Below, in pieces: positions 1 through 11,258 of a stretch of 19,199 nt of DNA (the first letter of the stretch is position 1; each line of letters starts with the position of its first letter). The DNA lies in the IMG/VR virus record IMGVR_UViG_2617270967_000019, positions 1-19,199 of that record; one strand, written 5' to 3'. The notes under the pieces were generated by a model that was not told the origin of the DNA, did not search any database, and worked only from the letters and a program-made list of their open reading frames with translations. The position numbers and the translations under genes are program-made. This DNA is from a virus. Taxonomy: Duplodnaviria; Heunggongvirae; Uroviricota; Caudoviricetes.

Positions 1-399
1 TCACTTCAGCGGGTAGTCATCAAACTCACCAGTCCGCGCGTCATTGATGATGTACGTCACCACCCCCTTCACTACGACTCGTTCCTCACAATCGTCGTCA
101 GTTATCCATGTCTTTTTATCAGCGTGGTCCAGTTCTTCCAGGTGCACCTTTGGCAGCAGCCTGAGACGCAACAGCCGTATCTGGTCATTCAGATGACAAA
201 TCACCAGGCTTCCGTCTACCGGAGTCAGCGATGTGTCCATGACCAGCAGAGCACCTCTCTTGATTCCTTCCCGCCATGATGTAGCAGCGTAACGGATGAA
301 GAATGTCGCCGCTGGTTTTCGTATCAACTCCTTGTCGAGTGAGATCGCATCCTCGTGGTAATCAGCAGCAGGGCTGGGAAACTGTGACATGGCAACCAT
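1..399 (-). CDS. UmuD'-like protein (LexA/UmuD S24 peptidase fold), N-terminally short
   Basis: 132-aa ORF, ATG at 399-397, stop TGA at 3-1, in-frame stop two codons upstream of the ATG. By-eye alignment to E. coli UmuD: FPSPAADY motif near the N-terminus, then P-AT-F, LLV-D and L-L-P-V-L blocks. It begins about where processed UmuD' begins and lacks the Cys-Gly cleavage site. Ser of the GDSM motif is retained as TSW, but the catalytic Lys position (UmuD VKKL) reads LLRL. Confidence 0.55.
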   Translation of the reverse strand: MVAMSQFPSPAADYHEDAISLDKELIRKPAATFFIRYAATSWREGIKRGALLVMDTSLTPVDGSLVICHLNDQIRLLRLRLLPKVHLEELDHADKKTWITDDDCEERVVVKGVVTYIINDARTGEFDDYPLK

Positions 400-414
400 A
401 ACTCACCTCATTGG

Positions 415-434
415 CACTGTATGTACATACAGTA
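415..434. promoter_or_regulatory. LexA (SOS) box CTGT-N8-ACAG just upstream of the UmuD'-like gene
   Basis: Sequence cactgtatgtacatacagta at 415-434 matches the CTGT-N8-ACAG LexA consensus with an AT-rich spacer, centred about 25 nt upstream of the ATG at 399; it is part of a longer near-palindrome attggcactgt...acagtaccaat. Confidence 0.6.
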
Positions 435-444
435 CCAATGCATG

Positions 445-488
445 GATTTTGATCGTTGCAACCGATCGATTTGAAGATTTTGATCGTT
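445..488. repeat. Two 13-bp direct repeats (GATTTTGATCGTT) with three GATC sites in the divergent intergenic region
   Basis: gattttgatcgtt occurs at 445-457 and 476-488 (31 bp apart, three helical turns). GATC at 451-454, 464-467 (inside the palindrome cgatcg) and 482-485. Confidence 0.6.
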
Positions 489-578
489 ATTTCCCATAAC
501 CAAATAGTGAGCAATTTTGGGACATTTATTATAAATTTAAATTGTCTTTAAATATAAATATCCAATCGGTAAATCATC

Positions 579-1865
579 GTGAAAAATAATTCCGCGCTGT
601 TTGTTGGTTCTTTTTTTGAAAGTGACCAAAGCTCAAAAGTAAACCTGGCATTATCTTATGATGGAGAACGATTCGAAAAAATAAAGGCTCAATTCCTTTG
701 GGCTATTGGTGGAACTGGAGAAGTTTTAGGGAGAGACCCATCAATTATTTATCACAACGGTTGGTGGTTAATAGCCGTATCAGGATATACAGAAAACGTT
801 TATGACGTCGATTGCTGGCGCTCACGTGATTTAACCGTGTGGGAACTGGTACGAATTAAGCTTGGCGATACGCCAGTCTGTGGGAAACGATTACCGGGTT
901 CAGATCTGGTGACCACTGACGTGTGGGCTCCTGAATGGTTTGTTGATGACGAAAATCTGTTCCTGATAGTCAGCCTGCGTTATTACAACGATCAGACTGA
1001 CAGTAAAGGTGTAAATGTCAAAAGTTTTAAAACATTCTATTCTGTCTGTTCTGATGTTGAGAGACTGGAGTTTTACGATCCGGTTGCGGTAAATATCGAA
1101 CCAAAAAACATGATTGATTCTGTTTTTTCCAGAATATTCCAGACGTATTACCTGACAATAAAAGATGAAATCACCAAAAAAATTGAGGTGTATTGTTCAA
1201 ATTGTTTCTCAGGACAGTTCACGAAATTATCAGTAATTCCGTTTACTCAGGCGGCGGAAGGCCCGGCGCTGGTTTATTTGCCGGACGGCACGATCAGAAT
1301 CTATGCGGATTTTTTCGACACAAAAAAATGGACTTATTTTGTAGACACGAAAGACTTCGTGACGTTCACGCCAGAGCGCCCCGTTTTGTTTGACGGCAGA
1401 ATTAAGCGCGGGACTATTACAAATGTGCTGAACTGGCGCGATAGTGAAACCGCATTGCAGCAACTGTCGGCGCTGTTCTGTGCAAACTCCGGGGATTTAC
1501 AGCCAGGGAAAATCCACAAGCTCATTGATGTAGCGGGAACGAGCAATATCAACGCTACTGATTTAATCTGGTGGCCTGAAACTGGACATTGTTATTTCAC
1601 CGAGGGGTTATCCGGTAACGTGACAATCAATGCGCTGCCAACTGTTTACCCGGACGGGAGTTCGTTTTATCTGATGGTCCGAAGCGCAACGCCGGGAGCT
1701 GGTGATCTGACGCTTAAACAGGCTGTCGGCGACCTGTACCACCCGGCTAATGGCATGGCGATATTTGATGCTGATTTGGTAGTGGCGGCTGGCGGGAACG
1801 CCGCATCACGTCTGTTTAGAATGGTGTGCTTTGATGGCCAGTTGTGGGTTGAGGGGGTTTTCTGA
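579..1865 (+). CDS. Hypothetical protein, possible five-bladed beta-propeller glycoside hydrolase (GH43-like)
   Basis: 428-aa ORF, AT-rich. The only in-frame start after the upstream stop is GTG at 579, with a weak RBS. Motifs resembling the GH43 catalytic triad context: GRDPSIIYHNGWW (about residue 50), DVWAPEWF (about 117), AEGPALVYLPDG (about 227). No signal peptide seen. Function is a low-confidence guess. Confidence 0.45.
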   Translation: MKNNSALFVGSFFESDQSSKVNLALSYDGERFEKIKAQFLWAIGGTGEVLGRDPSIIYHNGWWLIAVSGYTENVYDVDCWRSRDLTVWELVRIKLGDTPVCGKRLPGSDLVTTDVWAPEWFVDDENLFLIVSLRYYNDQTDSKGVNVKSFKTFYSVCSDVERLEFYDPVAVNIEPKNMIDSVFSRIFQTYYLTIKDEITKKIEVYCSNCFSGQFTKLSVIPFTQAAEGPALVYLPDGTIRIYADFFDTKKWTYFVDTKDFVTFTPERPVLFDGRIKRGTITNVLNWRDSETALQQLSALFCANSGDLQPGKIHKLIDVAGTSNINATDLIWWPETGHCYFTEGLSGNVTINALPTVYPDGSSFYLMVRSATPGAGDLTLKQAVGDLYHPANGMAIFDADLVVAAGGNAASRLFRMVCFDGQLWVEGVF

Positions 1866-1899
1866 TATAATTGTGGCTCAATGAAAATTGGGCCACATA

Positions 1900-2961
1900 A
1901 TGAACAATAAAATATTTTCCGTCCAGTATCTTCGTGGAATAGCAGCGCTACTTGTGGTGCTGTACCATTTTTCTTTTTTTACTCCGCGCTGGTTTGCTAA
2001 TTTATTTGCAAATGGCATGGTGGGCGTTGATATTTTTTTCATTATCTCTGGATTTATTATTTATTGGTCAACAATAAATCCTGAGGAATGCAGACCAACG
2101 GTATTTATTGTTAAACGATTCGCCAGAATATACCCGCTATTTTTTGTTGTGTTACTGGTTTCGTTGTTATTGCAACCTGCGCCTGCCACACAATTATCCA
2201 GGGGTTTTCTGGTTCTGCACAACGATTACACACTACCCGCTCCGGCGTTTGGATTTAATCTGCTACCGCCCGCGTGGACATTGACTTATGAAATATCGTT
2301 CTACGCTATTTTCTGTATGTGCGCTGCAATAACGACCCGGTATCGAGGTTCATTGTGTATCGCGCTGCTGATTGCAATCCCGGCAGTGCTACAGGTTGCG
2401 TTTAATGGAGGGTTGTCGTTTAACAGCACAGTCACCGCTATCCCTCCTGCTGACTCGCCGTTTTATGGTCTAATCAGGCTGGCAGGCTCAACGATGTTTT
2501 ATGAGTTTGCGTTTGGGATTATGTCTGGAATGATATTTGAAAGGTTTAAATTAATTCTTCCTAACTTAACTGCTATTACTATAGCAATATTCGCATCGGC
2601 TTTATTTTTCTATTTTTTCTTCACATTCTCAGACCATACCAGCGGTATAGAAGGAATGTTCTTTTTTGCTGCAATATTTTTTGTGGGCGTTTTGATGCTG
2701 GATAAATCAAAGGCGGGAGAGATAAAAGCATTATCAATTCTTGGCGACCTGACATATAGCATTTATCTCTGTCATTGGCTGGTAATGCAGATGGTACAGA
2801 AATTTATTCCGATTGGGGAGTATAAGCACTGGGGCGTCCTTGTCCCCTGCATGCTTGTTGCTTCTCTGATGATGGCATTCGCAGCTAACCGGATAATTGA
2901 AAAACCGTTTATCCGTCTGGCCCGTTCGGCGCTGAAACGCCAGGAGATTACGACGCGGTAG
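1900..2961 (+). CDS. Acyltransferase-3 family integral membrane O-acyltransferase (OafA/Oac-like)
   Basis: Begins MNNKIFSVQYLRGIAALLVVLYHF, a typical acyltransferase-3 N-terminus, followed by multiple hydrophobic segments. ATG at 1900; the ORF track start at 1888 is TTG. Sits 22-35 bp after the upstream gene, suggesting an operon. AT-rich. Confidence 0.65.
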   Translation: MNNKIFSVQYLRGIAALLVVLYHFSFFTPRWFANLFANGMVGVDIFFIISGFIIYWSTINPEECRPTVFIVKRFARIYPLFFVVLLVSLLLQPAPATQLSRGFLVLHNDYTLPAPAFGFNLLPPAWTLTYEISFYAIFCMCAAITTRYRGSLCIALLIAIPAVLQVAFNGGLSFNSTVTAIPPADSPFYGLIRLAGSTMFYEFAFGIMSGMIFERFKLILPNLTAITIAIFASALFFYFFFTFSDHTSGIEGMFFFAAIFFVGVLMLDKSKAGEIKALSILGDLTYSIYLCHWLVMQMVQKFIPIGEYKHWGVLVPCMLVASLMMAFAANRIIEKPFIRLARSALKRQEITTR

Positions 2962-3412
2962 CAGGACGTGGCGGCCATTCAAGGCTGTCACTTAATATCG
3001 CTGCTTCATCATTAAACTTCATTTTCTTCAAGGCATCGATATGAGAAAGCCACTCTTTAAAGGTCGCCTTCTCTTCATCGGTGATGATCTCCAGAATGAG
3101 CTTAGAAGGCCAGTGTTCGCTGCTTATATATGCGTTAGCCGCAGAGATTAACGCATCTCTCTTTGACTCGGCCTGTGCCAGTTTAAGCGCGAACAGTTCT
3201 TCTTTAGTTGGCTCGGGAATTTTTTCCCACGCAGGCATGCCGTCTGGCCCTGCAACCCTTCGCATGCCGTCTTTAACTGTTGGGTAAAATTCGGCGAAAA
3301 CACCCATATCAACCGGCACAGCATCACTGTATTCGTCCGTCTTTAACAGAGAGCTTTCCTTGAAAACAAAAGCGTTGCTTTTGGCACTATATAAAAAATC
3401 TGAATCAGACAT
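2948..3412 (-). CDS. tfa: Tail fibre assembly protein (Tfa-like chaperone)
   Basis: 154-aa ORF; C-terminal region ...KATFKEWLSHIDALKK...SLEWPPRP resembles the conserved tail of tail-fibre-assembly proteins (lambda Tfa, Mu U). Its ATG overlaps the stop of the upstream fibre-like ORF (TAATG at 3410-3414). Confidence 0.5.
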   Translation of the reverse strand: MSDSDFLYSAKSNAFVFKESSLLKTDEYSDAVPVDMGVFAEFYPTVKDGMRRVAGPDGMPAWEKIPEPTKEELFALKLAQAESKRDALISAANAYISSEHWPSKLILEIITDEEKATFKEWLSHIDALKKMKFNDEAAILSDSLEWPPRPATAS

Positions 3413-3847
3413 TACGCTCTCCCGATAGCAATCCAGTTAAAAACTGTTGGCTGCGCAGTAAAGTTGTGGTCGGACGAACTCCAGGTTGCAGAACGAACAT
3501 TAAAGCTCCCTGCGTTAACCTTTTCGGCACCATACACGGTTAAGAGTTGATAGATACCGCCGGAGGCTGTCCATCCAGAGACATGGCCTTCTACTGCAAA
3601 TACCTGGTATGAGCTCATCGCCACACCCATATTCACATTATAAAATCCGTTACTGTCCGTTGTACCTACATCCATCTGGATGATCATATTGCCAGGAAGG
3701 CGAATAACCACACCAGACCCGGTTGTTGTATAGGTAAAGGATGACATATCCGGAACTTGCCCGGTAGCCGGTATAAATCACACACTCTCCGACATACACA
3801 TCATCCGGATGGGCAAACAGCTCTTGTTTGTCTGTGAGCTCTGCCAT
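3412..3847 (-). pseudogene. Tail-fibre-like (receptor-binding region) remnant split over two reading frames
   Basis: Two overlapping minus-strand ORFs in different frames (3650-3847, 65 aa, ATG with a GGAG RBS; 3412-3747, 111 aa, Gly/Ser/Thr-rich). The second frame is open from 3777. Position immediately upstream of tfa suggests a truncated or frameshifted fibre gene. Confidence 0.35.
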
Positions 3848-4204
3848 TGTTGGCTCCGTTTATCCGTTAAAAGGGATATCAGTTAAGTTATCCCGTGCAG
3901 GGTATAAGCCATTGTCGAGACCACTCATTGAATGGCCTCTGCAATAACCGATGTCTTTCCATCAGTCCGCCACAACAAAGAATCTTTTTTGCCATAAGGC
4001 AGGAGGTTCATCTTTCAGTGGCTGCCAGTGTTATTTCCCCACTTACTGGCTTGGGTTGTTTCGTGGTACTGCCGTAACTGGTTGCCAAGAATAAATTCCG
4101 GTTTCATTATCAAGCCCACCCGTAGATGGGCTTTGTAATGGATAGCCGTTGCTCAGTTCTCGTAATGCTTTGATTTTTCCGATAACGCAGTTTTGCGTTT
4201 GCCA

Positions 4205-4726
4205 TCAGCACGCGATATCGAGAGTCAACTGCAGTTGCTCGCGCCAGTACTCAACATTTGCTTCAATAACCGGCTTATCCCATCGCCAGCGAGCCATCTC
4301 TCTTGCCCCATTGCTGGCTTTTGATTTCCGGTCATCGCGAATGCGACATGCTTGCTCATATTTCTGCTGCTCAGTCAGTTCACCGCGAAGCAGACTATCA
4401 ATGTGCAGGTCGCACCACACAGCAAAACGAGCATCACACCAACGGGCAAATGCAACTGAAAGTTTTGGATGTAGCCACGTACCACCACCCCTGTCCTTTC
4501 GTGCCTTGCTGGTTTTTACATACCTCGATTGTGAGGGATGTAAAATTTGAGATTCTTTCCCGGTCAACGCTTCGTCTAAAGCACGAACGTATTCAAGCGT
4601 TTCTGCCAAACGCATCCAGTTATCAATGCGTTTTCCAAATCTCTCAGCAACACCTGTGACGTTGATCCAACCATCAGTGTTGAAACTGACAATTTCACCT
4701 TTGTAATTAAGTGGCACGATATTCAT
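4205..4726 (-). CDS. KilA-N domain protein
   Basis: 173 aa; N-terminus MNIVPLNYKGEIVSFNTDGWINVTGVAERFGKRIDNWMRLAETLEY and the later WLHPKLSVAFARWCDARFAVW block match the KilA-N (APSES-like) DNA-binding domain pattern. Confidence 0.55.
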   Translation of the reverse strand: MNIVPLNYKGEIVSFNTDGWINVTGVAERFGKRIDNWMRLAETLEYVRALDEALTGKESQILHPSQSRYVKTSKARKDRGGGTWLHPKLSVAFARWCDARFAVWCDLHIDSLLRGELTEQQKYEQACRIRDDRKSKASNGAREMARWRWDKPVIEANVEYWREQLQLTLDIAC

Positions 4727-4873
4727 AACGTTTACCTACCATTTGAAATGAACCTTTGCCGCATAGGAAACCAGCCCACCGAGGCTCGCCAGCACTAACT
4801 GGTATCCTCAAAGGCCCATTCCAAAGGGGCAGGTTCGGTGTAAAAAACATGCGTTGCGGTACGCATTTATTGC

Positions 4874-5978: not shown

Positions 5979-6153
5979 TCAATCTGTCCTCGCGCTCTTT
6001 GCGCTTGTAGTACCAGTTGATGCCAAATGTGCCGACAGTACAAAGAATACCAATGATGACAGCCCAGTCATTCAGGGAGAGAATGCCACCCATCGCAGTC
6101 AGTCCTCCGAAGCTGTAACTGAACCATTCTCTGATTTTGTCCATACGGTACAT
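5950..6153 (-). CDS. Holin with dual-start (antiholin/holin) motif, two TMDs, possible pinholin
   Basis: 67 aa; MYRMDK with ATGs at 6153 and 6144 (Met-Tyr-Arg-Met dual-start). Two hydrophobic segments ([13 protein letters not shown], weakly hydrophobic and Gly-rich; [20 protein letters not shown]) and a charged C-tail. Upstream inverted repeat cccctcaatgaagggg precedes the starts. 3' end overlaps the endolysin start. Not lambda S and not the S21/EssD sequence as I recall them. Confidence 0.7.
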
Positions 6154-6397
6154 GCTCTACCCCTTCATTGAGGGGATTTGCTCTATTTAATTAGGAATAA
6201 GGTCGATTACTGATAGAACAAATCCAGGCTAGTGTGTTTAGTAATCAGATTTGTTCGTGACCGATATGCACGGGCAAAACGGCAGGAGGTTGTTAGCGCA
6301 ACTTCTTGCCACCCGCTTTCACGAAGGTCATGTGTAGAAGGCCGCAGCGTAACTATCACTGATGAATTCAGGACAGCCAGTGGCTACGGCTCAGTTA

Positions 6398-6473
6398 TGG
6401 TGCTGGTTAACGGACTTGAACCGCTACCCATTCGCTTACAAGGCGACTGCTCTACCATTGGAGCTAAACCAGC
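6398..6473 (-). tRNA. tRNA, anticodon UGU (Thr) by manual folding
   Basis: Minus-strand 76-nt cloverleaf GCTGGTT-TA-GCTC-CAATGGTA-GAGC-A-GTCGC-CTTGTAA-GCGAA-TGGGT-AGCGG-TTCAAGT-CCGTT-AACCAGC-A-CCA. Perfect 7-bp acceptor stem, 4-bp D stem with GG in the loop, T loop TTCAAGT, encoded CCA; one mismatch at the top of the anticodon stem. Confidence 0.6.
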
Positions 6474-6478
6474 ATATT

Positions 6479-6552
6479 TGGCGGGACAGCGTGGACTCGA
6501 ACCACGATAAGAAGGTTAACAGCCTTCCGTAATGACCTTATACGACTGACCC
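6479..6552 (-). tRNA. tRNA-like, anticodon GUU (Asn-type), atypical D-arm (possible pseudo-tRNA)
   Basis: Minus-strand GGGTCAG-T-CGTA-TAAGGTCAT-TACG-GAAGG-CTGTTAA-CCTTC-TTAT-CGTGG-TTCGAGT-CCACG-CTGTCCC-G-CCA (74 nt). Anticodon loop and T loop match E. coli tRNA-Asn; one acceptor mismatch and short junctions around the D arm. Confidence 0.45.
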
Positions 6553-6745
6553 AAATAAAAAATCCCGAAACCGTTATGCAGGCTCTAACTATTACCTGCG
6601 AACTGTTTCGGGATTGCATTTTACAGACCTCTCAGCCTGCGATGGTTGGAGTTCCAGACGATACGTCGAAGTGACCAACTAGGCGGAATCGGTAGTAAGC
6701 GCCGCCTCTTTTTATCTCACTACCACAACGAGCGAATTAACCCAT
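6553..6745 (-). ncRNA. pR'-initiated short late leader RNA (lambda 6S RNA equivalent) ending at tR'
   Basis: Minus-strand sequence from ATGGGTTAATTCGCTCGTTGTGGTAGTGAG... to the hairpin CCCGAAAC...GTTTCGGG plus ATTTTTTAT, recognised as the lambda pR'-tR' transcript. TSS placement is approximate. Confidence 0.6.
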
Positions 6746-6790
6746 CGTTGGGTCAAATTTACCCAACTTTATTCAAAAAGTCAATATCAT
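6746..6790 (-). promoter_or_regulatory. Late promoter pR' with Q-utilisation (qut) site
   Basis: Minus strand TTGACT (6784-6779), about 17-bp spacer, TAAATT (6761-6756), immediately downstream of Q; matches the lambda pR' arrangement. Confidence 0.6.
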
Positions 6791-6826
6791 GCCGTTAATA
6801 TGTTGCCATCCGTGGCAATCATGCTG

Positions 6827-7450
6827 CTAACGTGTGACCGCATTCAAGATATTGTCTGCGATTGACTCTTCCTTGTGGCATTGCACCACCAGAGCGTCAT
6901 ACAGCGGCTTAACAGTGCGTGACCAGGTGGGTTGAGTAAGGTTTGGGATTAGCATCGTTACAGCGCGATATGCGGCGCTTGCTGGAATCCTTGAATAGCC
7001 GACACCTTTGCATCTTCCGCACTCTTTCTCAACAACTCTCCCCCACTGCTCTGTTTTTGCTATATCAACCGCGCGGCCTGTACCGTGGCAATCTCTGCAT
7101 CTTGCCCCCGGCGTCGCGGCACTACGGCAATAATCCGCATAAGCGAATGTTGCGAGCACTTGCAGCACCTTTGCCTTAGTATTTCCTTCGAGCTTTGCCA
7201 CACCACGGTATTTCCCCGATACCTTGTGTGCAAATTGCATCAGATAGTTGATAGCCTTTTGTTTGTCGTTCTGGCTGAGTTCATGCTTACCGCAGAATGC
7301 AGCCATTCCGAATCCGGCTTGTGATTGCGCCATCCCCATAGCAGCCATCACATCAGTACCGGAAAGAGAGTCAGAAGCCGTGGCCCGTGGTGAGTCGCTC
7401 ATCATCGGGCTTTTTGGCGAATGAAATTTAGCTACGCTTTCGAGTCTCAT
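6827..7450 (-). CDS. Q: Late antiterminator Q (lambda-type)
   Basis: 207-aa translation MRLESVAKFHSPKSPMMSDSPRATASDSLSG... recognised as lambda Q over its full length. Confidence 0.95.
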   Translation of the reverse strand: MRLESVAKFHSPKSPMMSDSPRATASDSLSGTDVMAAMGMAQSQAGFGMAAFCGKHELSQNDKQKAINYLMQFAHKVSGKYRGVAKLEGNTKAKVLQVLATFAYADYCRSAATPGARCRDCHGTGRAVDIAKTEQWGRVVEKECGRCKGVGYSRIPASAAYRAVTMLIPNLTQPTWSRTVKPLYDALVVQCHKEESIADNILNAVTR

Positions 7451-7637
7451 CGTCTTCCCCCCTCTTGCCCTGTTTGACCATCAGGACGCCGTTAACTATT
7501 ACGTGACGCTCGCCTTTTCTGTCTCGGTTGTACTTGAGCACTGTTCCTCTTGCGCAGGAAAGCATCCTCGCCACTTCGGTCTGATTGCCTCGTGCCTGTA
7601 TAAGCAGTTCTGGTATCGTTTGAATTGTGGCGTTCAT
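7428..7637 (-). CDS. ninH: NinH-like small HTH protein
   Basis: 69 aa; ...TIPELLIQARGNQTEVARMLSCARGTVLKYNRD... resembles lambda NinH as I recall it. Overlaps the Q start by 23 nt. Confidence 0.6.
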   Translation of the reverse strand: MNATIQTIPELLIQARGNQTEVARMLSCARGTVLKYNRDRKGERHVIVNGVLMVKQGKRGEDDETRKRS

Positions 7638-7996
7638 ACGTTCTCCAGTTCGGTGATTTTTATTCCAAGCCGTCCGCCTGGTACTTTCACACCACGAATT
7701 ACGCGAATGTCATCGAATTGCTCGTCGTCTTCCGCAAATCCGGCGTGGATAAGGGAGTCGAGTAAACCTTTCAGGATGTTATCGAGGTCGCGGCGGCGGG
7801 AGTCTGGAACGTCTGCGATGACTTTGATGCGGAGTCGTGATTTGGTGAAAATGTCTAACTTAAGTTGGCGGATGATTTGCTGAACGTCTTTTCGGTATTT
7901 CTGGCCTTTATCGCTGATGTAGTATTGGCTTCCTCGTCTTCGCCAGTAGGTATTCACCGACGGCGGGTATGGAAGCACAAACTGATATTCGTTCAT
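7634..7996 (-). CDS. rusA: RusA-family Holliday junction resolvase
   Basis: 120 aa; matches the RusA pattern (LPYPPSVNTYWRRRG..., DRRRRDLDN..., GGRLGIKITE) of E. coli DLP12 RusA. Confidence 0.85.
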   Translation of the reverse strand: MNEYQFVLPYPPSVNTYWRRRGSQYYISDKGQKYRKDVQQIIRQLKLDIFTKSRLRIKVIADVPDSRRRDLDNILKGLLDSLIHAGFAEDDEQFDDIRVIRGVKVPGGRLGIKITELENV

Positions 7997-8283
7997 GGCT
8001 TAATCTTTCCCTCCTTCAGCAGTATCGCCTGCGTCCTGATCACGCCTTCGAGGTGGTAAAGTCTGGCGTCTTTGTTGTCGAGGTTATGGGTGCGTCGGTC
8101 GATTTCATCGTGACACGCGCTACAAGCCCATGCACCGATCAGGTCGTCAGGCTTCATTCCCGCTCCGCAAATTCCAGCCATCCGGTAATGTGCCAGAACT
8201 GTAGTTTCAGGATTGCCATTGCATATGCCGTAAATACGTACCTGGCATTCTCTGCCGCGCGCTTCTTTGCGTAGGTTAGCCAT
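7993..8283 (-). CDS. YbcO-like (DUF1364) Cys-rich putative nuclease
   Basis: 96 aa; RGRECQVRIYGICNGNPETTVLAHYR...ACSACHDEIDRR resembles E. coli DLP12 YbcO. ATGA start/stop overlap with rusA. Confidence 0.6.
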   Translation of the reverse strand: MANLRKEARGRECQVRIYGICNGNPETTVLAHYRMAGICGAGMKPDDLIGAWACSACHDEIDRRTHNLDNKDARLYHLEGVIRTQAILLKEGKIKP

Positions 8284-8552
8284 TATGGTTCACTCCAGTA
8301 ATTCTCAATTGCAGCAGCCATTCTCTGCATCCACTCAGCCAGCTTTAACGCGGCTTCTCTTTCAGAACCACATTTAGGGAAATCCTTCATTTCCATGCTG
8401 GCCTTATATGTTCTGAATGCCAGGTCTCCGGTAATAATCAGCTCCTGATCAAGCACCGAGCGTTTATTCCGGTGTTGAACGTAATAGACAGATTCAGTCC
8501 GCATTTCTTCTCTGTCTTTTTTGAAGGAAATAAGCTCAGAGAAATCACTCAT
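8283..8552 (-). CDS. Hypothetical nin-region protein
   Basis: 89-aa ORF, ATG at 8552 overlapping the upstream gene stop, stop overlapping the ybcO-like start; no family recognised. Confidence 0.45.
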   Translation of the reverse strand: MSDFSELISFKKDREEMRTESVYYVQHRNKRSVLDQELIITGDLAFRTYKASMEMKDFPKCGSEREAALKLAEWMQRMAAAIENYWSEP

Positions 8553-8721
8553 CGTCTTCTTCCTCGTACATTGAGCTATTCGGATCGCTCATCAGTTCTG
8601 CGCAGCAGTGCTCACACACGTGAACTTCCAGCACATGCAGCTTCTGACCGCAGTTAGCGCACGTTAATACCCGCTCGACGCTTTCTTTCAGGTATTGAAG
8701 GGATTGAGATGGGCTAAGCAT
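8545..8721 (-). CDS. NinF-like small Cys-rich (zinc-ribbon-like) protein
   Basis: 58 aa (below the ORF-track cutoff), [58 protein letters not shown]; C-x2-C ... C-x2-C-C arrangement with an acidic tail. Start and stop overlap neighbours. Confidence 0.5.
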
Positions 8722-9081: not shown

Positions 9082-9234
9082 CTACCGGATATCCCACAGG
9101 TGAGCTGTGTAATTGAAGGTTTTTACGTCAGATTCTTTTGGGATTGGCTTGCGTTTATTTCTGGAGCGTTTCGTTGGAAGGTATTTGCAGTTTTCGCAGA
9201 TGATGTCGGTGAAACTTCGTCGCTGTCGCCTCAT
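9082..9234 (-). CDS. Small basic nin-region protein (NinD/NinE-like)
   Basis: 50 aa from the ATG at 9234 ([50 protein letters not shown]); ATGA overlap with the upstream methylase stop. Confidence 0.5.
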
Positions 9235-9759
9235 GCCGCCCTCCTGACGCCCTGCCCGATCGCCATCAATGCCGCTTTGGATACGGTAGTAAACATCCGT
9301 CGAGGACTGATGAACGGTCGCCAAATCAGCAGCATGGAGCCTTTGCTGTTTCCCTTCTTCTCCAGCCCTGTCGATGGTTCGATAAAATTAATCCGTCCAT
9401 CAGTGATAATGCGAACTTCGTCGACACTCTCCAGAGCCTTGCTGAACCATCCGACTGACATATCCTCTGGCACAAGCATAACTACCGTCTGTCGCTGTTG
9501 TATGCACTGCTCAGCGGCTTTTTCCACCCACGGCCTGATATTGCTGTACGGTGGGTTATTCCAGATTGCACCGTGGCTTATCCACTCAGAATTTAGCGCG
9601 TCGTCGGCCTCAGTTAACCAGTGAGCGCACAGAGCATTTTTTGTCGCTCGCTGCCGAATCCAGCCAGAATCCAAACTCAATATCCAGTGCATCAAAAAGC
9701 CAAAGCGGCGTTTGCCAGCAGTCCTTGTCGTGTGCTGGCGTATTTGATTTGATAGTCAT
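9231..9759 (-). pseudogene. Phage Dam-type DNA N6-adenine methyltransferase, split by a frameshift at a 6-nt homopolymer
   Basis: N-terminal frame (ATG 9759, ...CWQTPLWLFDALDIEFGFWLDSAASDKK) stops at 9610; C-terminal frame (9231-9695) carries IWNNPPYSN, the (D/N)PPY motif. The frames switch at the T6 run at 9637-9642 (A6 in the coding sense); one fewer A would give a continuous protein of about 175 aa. ATGA overlap with ninB. Confidence 0.6.
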
Positions 9760-10196
9760 GCAGCCCGATCTCCCCATCGCGCTTTCCATTCGAGAGCCAG
9801 TCGCGCTTCGTCTGACCACTTAACGCCACGCTCTGTACCGAATGCCTGTATAAGCTCTAATAGCTCCGCAAATTCGTTTACACGCATCCTGCTGGTTGAC
9901 TGGCCTATTACCACAAAGCCATTCCCGGCAAGGTTAGGAACAACATCCTGCTGCTTTAATGCTGCGGTAAACACACACTTCCAGCTTTCTGCATCCAGCC
10001 AGCGACCATGCCATTCAACCTGACGAGAGACGTCACCAAGGCAAGCCCAAAGCTTTCGATTCTGGTCTAAGCTGCGGTTGCGTTCCTGAATGGTTACTAC
10101 GATTGGTTTGGTTGGGTCTGGAAGAATTTGCTGTACCGCGTGAATAGCGTTTTGCTGATGTGCTGGAGATCGAATTTCAAAGGTTAGTTTTTTCAT
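9756..10196 (-). CDS. ninB: NinB (Orf) recombination mediator
   Basis: 146 aa from MKKLTFEIRSPAHQQNAIHAVQQILPDPTKPIVVTIQERNRSLDQNRKLWACLGDV..., recognised as lambda NinB. Confidence 0.9.
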   Translation of the reverse strand: MKKLTFEIRSPAHQQNAIHAVQQILPDPTKPIVVTIQERNRSLDQNRKLWACLGDVSRQVEWHGRWLDAESWKCVFTAALKQQDVVPNLAGNGFVVIGQSTSRMRVNEFAELLELIQAFGTERGVKWSDEARLALEWKARWGDRAA

Positions 10197-10211
10197 GACT
10201 TCCCTCTCCCC

Positions 10212-10244
10212 CAAATAAAAAGGCCTGCGATTACCAGCAGGCCT
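10212..10244 (-). terminator. Rho-independent terminator between ren and ninB (lambda tR2 position)
   Basis: Minus strand AGGCCTGC-TGGTAATC-GCAGGCCT (8-bp stem) followed by TTTTTATTT. Confidence 0.5.
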
Positions 10245-10269
10245 GTTATTAGCTCAGTGATGTAGATGG

Positions 10270-10560
10270 TCATCTTTTAACTCCATATACTGCCAATACC
10301 CGTTTCATCGCGGCACTCTGGCGACACTCCTTAAAAATCAGGTTCGTGCTCATCTTTCCTTCCCGTTCTTCCCTGGTAGCAAATCGGTAATACACCGTTC
10401 GCCAGACCTTACCTTCGATAACCAGAAGACCTGCCCGTGCCATTTTAGCCGCGGCCTGATTTATGCTGGTTACTGTTGCGCCTGTTAGCGCGGCAACGTC
10501 CGGCGCACAGAAGCTATTATGCGTCCCCAGGTAATGAATAATTGCCTCTTTGCCCGTCAT
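10270..10560 (-). CDS. ren: Ren (Rex exclusion resistance) protein
   Basis: 96 aa, MTGKEAIIHYLGTHNSFCAPDVAALTGATVTSINQAAAKMARAGLLVIEGK..., recognised as lambda Ren. Confidence 0.9.
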   Translation of the reverse strand: MTGKEAIIHYLGTHNSFCAPDVAALTGATVTSINQAAAKMARAGLLVIEGKVWRTVYYRFATREEREGKMSTNLIFKECRQSAAMKRVLAVYGVKR

Positions 10561-11258
10561 ACACTTGCTCCTTTCAGTCCGAACTTAGCTTTGATTTCTG
10601 CGATCTTCGCCAGAGCCTGTGCACGATTTAGAGGTCTACCGCCCATGACAGGAAGTTGTTTTACTGGTTCAGGGATCGCCTCACCACGGTTAATTCTCGC
10701 AGTCATATGGACAAGCTCATCTGCGGCCTTACGGCGTAATTCCGCATCAGTAAGCGCATTGGCCCGCATGTTCTGATACAGGTTGGTAACCAGCCAGTAG
10801 TGCGCGTTTGATTTCCACGGATAAGACTCCGCATCCGGATACAGGCCTCGCTTCCGGCAATACTCGTAAACCATATCAACCAGCTCGCTGACGTTTGGCA
10901 GTCCGGCGGTAACGGATGCTTCTTCCCGGCACCATGCAACAAACTGCCCGGGTGATGGCAGAAATGGTCGATTCTGCCGACGGGCTACGCGCATTCCTGC
11001 GTTAACCTGTTCCATCGTGGTGATCCCGTTTTCCCGAAAAGCCAGAACCCACTGGCGACGGATTTCGTTCACTTCGTTCTGGTCACGGTTAGCCAGGCTC
11101 GCCGGGAAAGTTGCCAGTAACTGGCTGAACACACCGTTGATGATCTGCGCTACCTGCTGTACCTGCGGCTTTTCGTCGTACTGTTCCGGCATGTTGTTGG
11201 CGATCCGACGCATCTGCTCACGGTCAAAGTTAACCATCTGTGCGGCGATGTTTTTCAT
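10557..11258 (-). CDS. P: Replication protein P (DnaB helicase loader)
   Basis: 233 aa, MKNIAAQMVNFDREQMRRIANNMPEQYDEKPQVQQVAQIINGVFSQ..., recognised as lambda P. Confidence 0.95.
   Translation of the reverse strand: MKNIAAQMVNFDREQMRRIANNMPEQYDEKPQVQQVAQIINGVFSQLLATFPASLANRDQNEVNEIRRQWVLAFRENGITTMEQVNAGMRVARRQNRPFLPSPGQFVAWCREEASVTAGLPNVSELVDMVYEYCRKRGLYPDAESYPWKSNAHYWLVTNLYQNMRANALTDAELRRKAADELVHMTARINRGEAIPEPVKQLPVMGGRPLNRAQALAKIAEIKAKFGLKGASV

Follow-up and report, generated by a model that had tools for sequence, protein, structure and literature searches.

Escherichia coli has its own Dam enzyme, which methylates GATC, and the nin genes are dispensable for lambdoid phages. Known contingency homopolymers are typically at least 8 nt long. 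The target of M.EcoVT2Dam has been reported as GATC (PMC6602927), and ATGA overlaps between neighbouring genes are typical of nin-region organisation (PMC8022706). For runs of A residues two kinds of slippage are on record: C-AAA-AAA is a documented ribosomal slippery site of E. coli, giving 25-60% of -1 frameshifting in pDEST17 constructs (PMC1851650), and for programmed transcriptional slippage PMC1088944 cites sites at which about nine A or T follow one another.

In the present study we analyse an interrupted phage dam gene located within a stretch of DNA of 19,199 nucleotides, hereafter called the window. The dam locus (9231-9759, minus strand) is flanked by ninB and ninE in the nin region of a lambdoid prophage, and the coordinates of all features are collected in Table 1. 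A 629-nt query around the gene gave matches in 1,900 of the 5,426 complete E. coli genomes, the best of them 628 nt long, 99.8% identical and annotated as ninB, phage N-6-adenine-methyltransferase and NinE. In the alignment with the top match, ETEC1739 (WP_000153270.1, 175 aa), the sole difference over 629 nt was the change of A5 to A6, and the window gene minus one A is nucleotide-identical to the intact 528-nt ETEC1739 gene. As the one extra A is the only difference, the frame switch at the homopolymer is a demonstrated single-base insertion and not a matter of chance. In the coding sense the junction reads GAC AAA AAA TGC, while the intact orthologues have GAC AAA AAT GCT, that is D K N A.

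Table 1. Coordinates of the dam locus, its neighbours and the right-end ORFs in the window
Feature	Position	Strand	Evidence or remark
ninB (recombination protein NinB/Orf)	9756..10196	-	upstream of dam; gene call in locus L009, PF05772 match, orthologue annotation
dam 5' fragment, 49 codons and premature TGA	9610..9759	-	ORF listing, PF05869 profile positions 1-40, exact-product look-up
A6 run (T6 on the + strand), +1 insertion site	9637..9642	-	A5 in intact orthologues
dam 3' part, +1 frame, native residues 41-175	9231..9636	-	PF05869 profile positions 37-167; native stop 9231-9233
ninE	9082..9234	-	downstream of dam; gene call in locus L009 with PF05322
antisense ORF, 174 aa, without family match	9100..9624	+	called as a gene in some assemblies instead of the broken dam
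right-end ORF	579-1865	+	within window 1-4800
right-end ORF	1900-2961	+	within window 1-4800
right-end ORF	2948-3412	-	within window 1-4800
right-end ORF	3412-3747	-	within window 1-4800
right-end ORF	4205-4726	-	within window 1-4800

The 5' ORF begins with ATG at 9759 and ends with TGA at 9610-9612, its product being MTIKSNTPAHDKDCWQTPLWLFDALDIEFGFWLDSAASDKKCSVRSLVN; residues 1-40 are native and include WQTP and LDSAAS, and the last nine residues are out of frame. The 3' frame is open from well 5' of the A run to the TGA at 9231-9233 and encodes ...NALCAHWLTEADDALNSEWISHGAIWNNPPYSN..., with the catalytic (D/N)PP(Y/F) motif present as NPPY at 9546-9557 of the minus strand (residues 68-71 of the repaired protein). 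Searched against Pfam PF05869 (DNA N-6-adenine-methyltransferase, Dam), the N-terminal piece matched profile positions 1-40 (E 6.8e-10, 39.3 bits) and the C-terminal piece positions 37-167 of 169 (E 1.7e-49, 168.2 bits), and the two pieces are thus consecutive parts of one domain. The repaired protein of 175 aa scored 218 bits over profile positions 1-167 of 169, where the curated cut-off of the family is 28.1 bits, and it is identical in 174 of 175 residues to VT2-Sakai Dam (BAA94133.1) of an Stx2 phage. By analogy, the product of the repaired gene would be a GATC-specific N6-adenine methyltransferase. A single uninterrupted ORF, as carried by intact members of the family, is not found in the window, where a stop follows after 49 codons. 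The sequence-only reading had described a phage Dam-type N6-adenine methyltransferase with NPPY in its C-terminal part, the halves of which lie in adjacent frames with the switch exactly at a 6-nt A run; both the family and the place of the switch are borne out by the sequence, the PF05869 matches, the position between ninB and ninE and the intact orthologue, which is the same except for A5 at the run.

The gene order ninB-dam-ninE with overlapping stop and start codons is retained in the window. Inspection of the sequence revealed one ATGA junction of the ninB TGA with the dam ATG (9756-9759) and a second one of the native dam stop with the ninE ATG (9231-9234). Given this organisation and the premature termination at 9610, translational coupling of ninE to dam is presumably lost. 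The 174-aa ORF running antisense to dam is probably a mechanical by-product and its annotation a spurious call. In loci L007, L014 and L015 this antisense ORF is annotated as a gene, and the broken dam is partly unannotated.

In our view it is highly probable that the locus represents a real, heritable and stably OFF loss-of-function allele of an orphan phage Dam, carried in its nin region by a lambdoid prophage of commensal E. coli. The extra A in the former A5 run is most likely due to replication slippage, and translation from the native ATG now ends after 49 residues, past WQTP and LDSAAS and before the catalytic NPPY, so that no active enzyme would be expected from the A6 allele. The loss was probably neutral, considering the redundancy with host Dam, the dispensability of nin genes and the lost head and tail genes of this prophage, and the dead allele has been inherited through diversification of the prophage.

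A first alternative is recoding, by which the A6 allele would still yield some full-length Dam at attenuated expression, either because tRNA-Lys slips by +1 or -2 on C-AAA-AAA-U in the ribosome, or because RNA polymerase slips and drops one A. The insertion creates exactly the C-AAA-AAA heptamer; a +1 shift after the first AAA would restore the exact wild-type protein, and near-native proteins would come from +1 slippage after the second AAA or from -2 slippage. The documented shift at this heptamer has however the direction -1, and only +1 or -2 joins the two ORFs here. Rescue by -1 frameshifting was considered and rejected, as this frame is a dead end which reaches TAA after 7 codons. A +1 shift normally needs a slow A-site codon or a stop, often together with an upstream Shine-Dalgarno-like stimulator, and in GCAGCGAGCGAC AAA AAA UGC, on inspection of the preceding sequence, neither a slow codon or stop nor a Shine-Dalgarno-like +1 stimulator is visible. 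With respect to RNA polymerase, the window run comprises six residues, against about nine at transcriptional slippage sites. Programmed sites are moreover conserved among homologues, but this one is not, A6 being rare among thousands of A5 copies. Taken together, these points leave recoding very improbable. Its extension, according to which A6 is a recurrent and selected turning-down of phage Dam, a leaky allele arisen in several backgrounds with trace Dam made by +1 or -2 slippage of tRNA-Lys, we hold to be highly doubtful.

Another possibility is a phase-variable methyltransferase, in which the A tract would slip often during replication and switch the gene between ON (A5) and OFF (A6) within populations, in the manner of a phasevarion. 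The lesion falls in a homopolymer within the 5' third of a gene for a methyltransferase, an arrangement that is usual in phase-variable mod genes, and A6 may have arisen more than once (products P0002 and P0004, locus L008; see below). The tract itself, A5 in intact genes and A6 here, is just 5-6 nt long and falls short of the repeats of about 8 nt or more known from contingency loci. It is also not unusual in its surroundings, the window alone containing 35 six-base, 6 seven-base and 2 eight-base homopolymers; the dam gene has further 5-nt runs at 9694-9698 (T5) and 9519-9523 (A5).

The survey of tract length speaks against frequent slippage as well. An 81-nt query centred on the run matched 1,411 places in 1,250 complete E. 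coli genomes and 193 phage records, none of them at 99% identity or above, and among the matches listed each was one base shorter than the query, which corresponds to A5. Complete genomes totalling 28 Gb gave no match to a 40-nt query that seeds only across A6. In IMG/VR, a pattern allowing A4-A7 returned A5 in 118 and A6 in 1 of the 119 matches listed, patterns specific for A4 and for A7 matched nothing, and the A6-specific pattern matched 2 contigs in all. Among GTDB species representatives the A4-A7 pattern had four matches, all of them A5 (E. albertii and three MAG contigs). The intact protein had exact matches on at least 1,000 contigs of the protein collection, and the 49-aa product on 12. 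A 20-mer search for A6 in JGI metagenomes was set aside as uninformative, its four matches being, by inspection of their flanks, chance hits in an unrelated gene. The length is in this way essentially fixed at A5 over about 1,700 copies, with no repeat-length polymorphism among close relatives.

The fetched copies of the window prophage point in the same direction. All of them (the window and L009, L006, L010-L013, L015, L094 and L136) have A6, a variant with a 2.5-kb deletion included, and no copy of an A5 version of this prophage was found in complete E. coli genomes with window 1-4800 as the query. Since all the SNP-diverged copies have A6, the frameshift predates diversification of the prophage and has not flipped back; no ON revertant was seen among these copies of the diverging lineage. 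The dam gene is in addition inactivated by non-repeat lesions in other prophages. These lesions were found by looking up the 98-aa C-terminal ORF, which is called when the gene is broken, followed by alignment. Codon 47 is changed from TGG to TAG (W47 amber) in locus L148, and locus L141 has a 2-nt deletion and a further 1-nt deletion; in L142 and L144-L146 dam is truncated at its 5' end with the 3' half adjoining int/xis, and in L143 the likewise truncated gene adjoins cro. Such varied lesions mark a dispensable gene that erodes in prophages rather than a dedicated switch. In view of all this, we find phase variation of the tract very hard to credit.

The third alternative is an error of sequencing or assembly, with the true genome having A5 and an intact gene. 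A6 occurs in none of the 5,426 complete RefSeq E. coli genomes and in none of the 193 phage records, and the assembly behind one carrier, L008, is rich in indels, with 14-23 gap openings in about 3.6 kb; this carrier should be discounted. Of the window, at most 68% is covered by any of the 5,426 complete RefSeq E. coli genomes or by any phage record in GenBank. Against an error stands the number and diversity of the remaining carriers. Contig JNRW01000063.1 of the E. coli draft assembly GCA_000704885.1 (L009) is 100% identical to the whole window, and the look-up of the exact 49-aa truncated product placed it on at least 20 contigs, among them those of six NCBI assemblies (GCA_000687025.1, GCA_000704585.1, GCA_000704665.1, GCA_000704885.1, GCA_038073755.1 and GCA_019431125.1), of the Logan assembly of SRR23175538 and of an ENA gut metagenome. 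By its NCBI names the product is linked to E. coli isolates, 3-073-06_S3_C1 and 2-011-08_S3_C2 among them, and GCA_038073755.1 and GCA_019431125.1 are unrelated assemblies. A Logan contig from ERR1301012, reached via the C-terminal ORF, has A6 too. The identical allele has thus been recovered in several unrelated projects, including uniform re-assemblies of raw runs and a metagenome.

Nor are the sister assemblies noisy in homopolymers: over 10-12 kb, the alignment of their prophage copies with the window shows 12-28 SNPs and no more than one gap. To our knowledge, a 6-nt run is no systematic error site in short-read data. An artefact repeated identically over independent projects and pipelines would be very unlikely, and we attach very little weight to an error at this position. 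As to the view that the two ORFs are unrelated neighbouring genes, in favour of which gene callers annotate them separately, we give it practically no credence, as it is refuted by the orthologue alignment, by the match of both ORFs to consecutive positions of one Pfam domain and by the repair with a single A, apart from which both are nucleotide-identical to one intact 528-nt gene. Three causes of the split had been left side by side in the earlier reading, namely a sequencing error, an inactivating mutation and a slippage-prone tract giving variable expression; the inactivating mutation stands, while the error fails on the many independent assemblies with A6 and variable expression on the constancy of A5, the lack of A4 and A7 and the uniform A6 of the diverged prophage copies.

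Considering the dead allele as real, we compared its carriers with respect to origin. The A6 copies are, all but one, of the window haplotype, which occurs with A5 in five loci. Two A6 carriers, L007 and L014, are lambdoid backbones differing from the window prophage: L007 encodes a DnaB-type replication module, terminase and portal, and in both backbones NinG and a phosphatase gene lie downstream. They share with the window perfect ninB-dam'-ninE blocks of 1,191 nt (9084-10274) and 1,825 nt (9084-10908), the frameshift included, and the identity of the intact ETEC1739 copy with the window is confined to 9113-9876. Judging from these blocks, recombinational spread of one dead allele between lambdoid prophages would be the likelier and simpler explanation, and an independent insertion in L007 and L014 the less likely one. 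The shared block resembles module exchange among prophages.

Frameshift recurrence is expected at homopolymers. Products P0002 and P0004 (3 contigs) are 49-aa proteins with other out-of-frame tails, the differences of which, on codon reading by eye, are synonymous in the native frame, and L008 has A6 with 2 SNPs. The tails and these SNPs suggest that the A6 insertion may have recurred on other alleles, which fits a mutational hot spot but could also hint at selection. On another contig, product P0003 (121 aa) joins a C-terminal segment of ninB continuously with the 49-aa dam fragment in one ORF, and this copy has a second lesion at the ninB/dam junction. Assembly GCA_000704585.1 contains three contigs (JNRH01000066, 072 and 028, that is L010, L011 and L012) with nearly the same prophage segment, all A6, but flanked differently, either by the dacD side or by an integrase, which points to several copies, a mixed culture or a duplication in the assembly.

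The gene order of the identical locus L009 is exo-bet-gam-kil-cIII-N-cI-cro-cII-O-P-ninB-dam'-ninE-ninX-ninF-...-rusA-ninH-Q-holin-lysozyme-Rz, followed beyond Rz by a KilA-N ORF, a small ORF, a tail-fibre assembly gene, an acyltransferase-3 gene, a 428-aa ORF and the host dacD. The acyltransferase-3 gene, lying in window 1-4800, may encode an acetylase of O-antigen or surface sugars. Terminase, head and tail genes are absent from this gene order, and the prophage is therefore defective. Window 1-3838 is without a near-identical match in the 5,426 complete E. coli genomes. Loci L006, L010-L013 and L094 contain the same prophage minus a 2.5-kb segment (6146-8654), which spans the start of the holin gene, Q, ninH, rusA and ybcO and extends into ninF, so that the deletion puts ninX beside the holin gene; such copies are expected to be without the late-gene antiterminator. 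The window contains 50 GATC sites, compared to about 74 expected from base composition, which is a mild depletion.

There is little to connect the phage dam gene with GATC-dependent regulation, since GATC methylation of the lysogen is independent of this gene owing to the Dam of E. coli itself. The obtained results remove the idea of a phase-variable phage methylase feeding such regulation, as host Dam suffices and the tract is without length variability. What the locus contains is an ordinary frameshift pseudogene of an already well-known phage Dam family and not an on/off switch. It should be annotated as one frameshifted pseudogene, not as two small 'Dam family' proteins and a spurious antisense ORF. 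The identical dead allele in different lambdoid backbones is convenient for tracing how modules are exchanged between E. coli prophages, and beyond annotation the finding has otherwise little significance.

Compared with known systems, the locus shares its C-AAA-AAA with the slippery sites of pDEST17 attB1 and dnaX (C-AAA-AAA and A-AAA-AAG), but the -1 direction of these sites is useless in the window. The A9/T9 transcriptional slippage sites of Thermus thermophilus dnaX, Shigella mxiE and IS elements have a longer run, and the window site, unlike programmed ones, is not conserved. With the phasevarion mod genes of Haemophilus, Neisseria, Helicobacter and Campylobacter it has in common that a mononucleotide run in the 5' part of the methyltransferase gene is the place of the frameshift; it differs from them in its run of 5-6 nt, in the near-invariant A5 over the surveyed copies, in the stable inheritance of A6 and in having no range of lengths. 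Defective (cryptic) lambdoid E. coli prophages with gene decay are the fitting category for the element as a whole, with the same loss of morphogenesis genes and a point-lesioned accessory nin gene, and without material difference; in one detail, the same dead dam allele is also present in the L007 prophage, which retains terminase and portal. The closest relatives of the gene itself are VT2-Sakai Dam and the nin-region phage N-6-adenine-methyltransferases of lambdoid phages (PF05869, e.g. WP_000153270.1), with the same position between ninB and ninE, the same ATGA overlaps and the same NPPY. In contrast to these enzymes, the frame in the window is broken after codon 40 and the full-length enzyme is not encoded, so that, on the reading frames, the dam locus of the window is to be considered a pseudogene of the PF05869 family and not a functional member of it.
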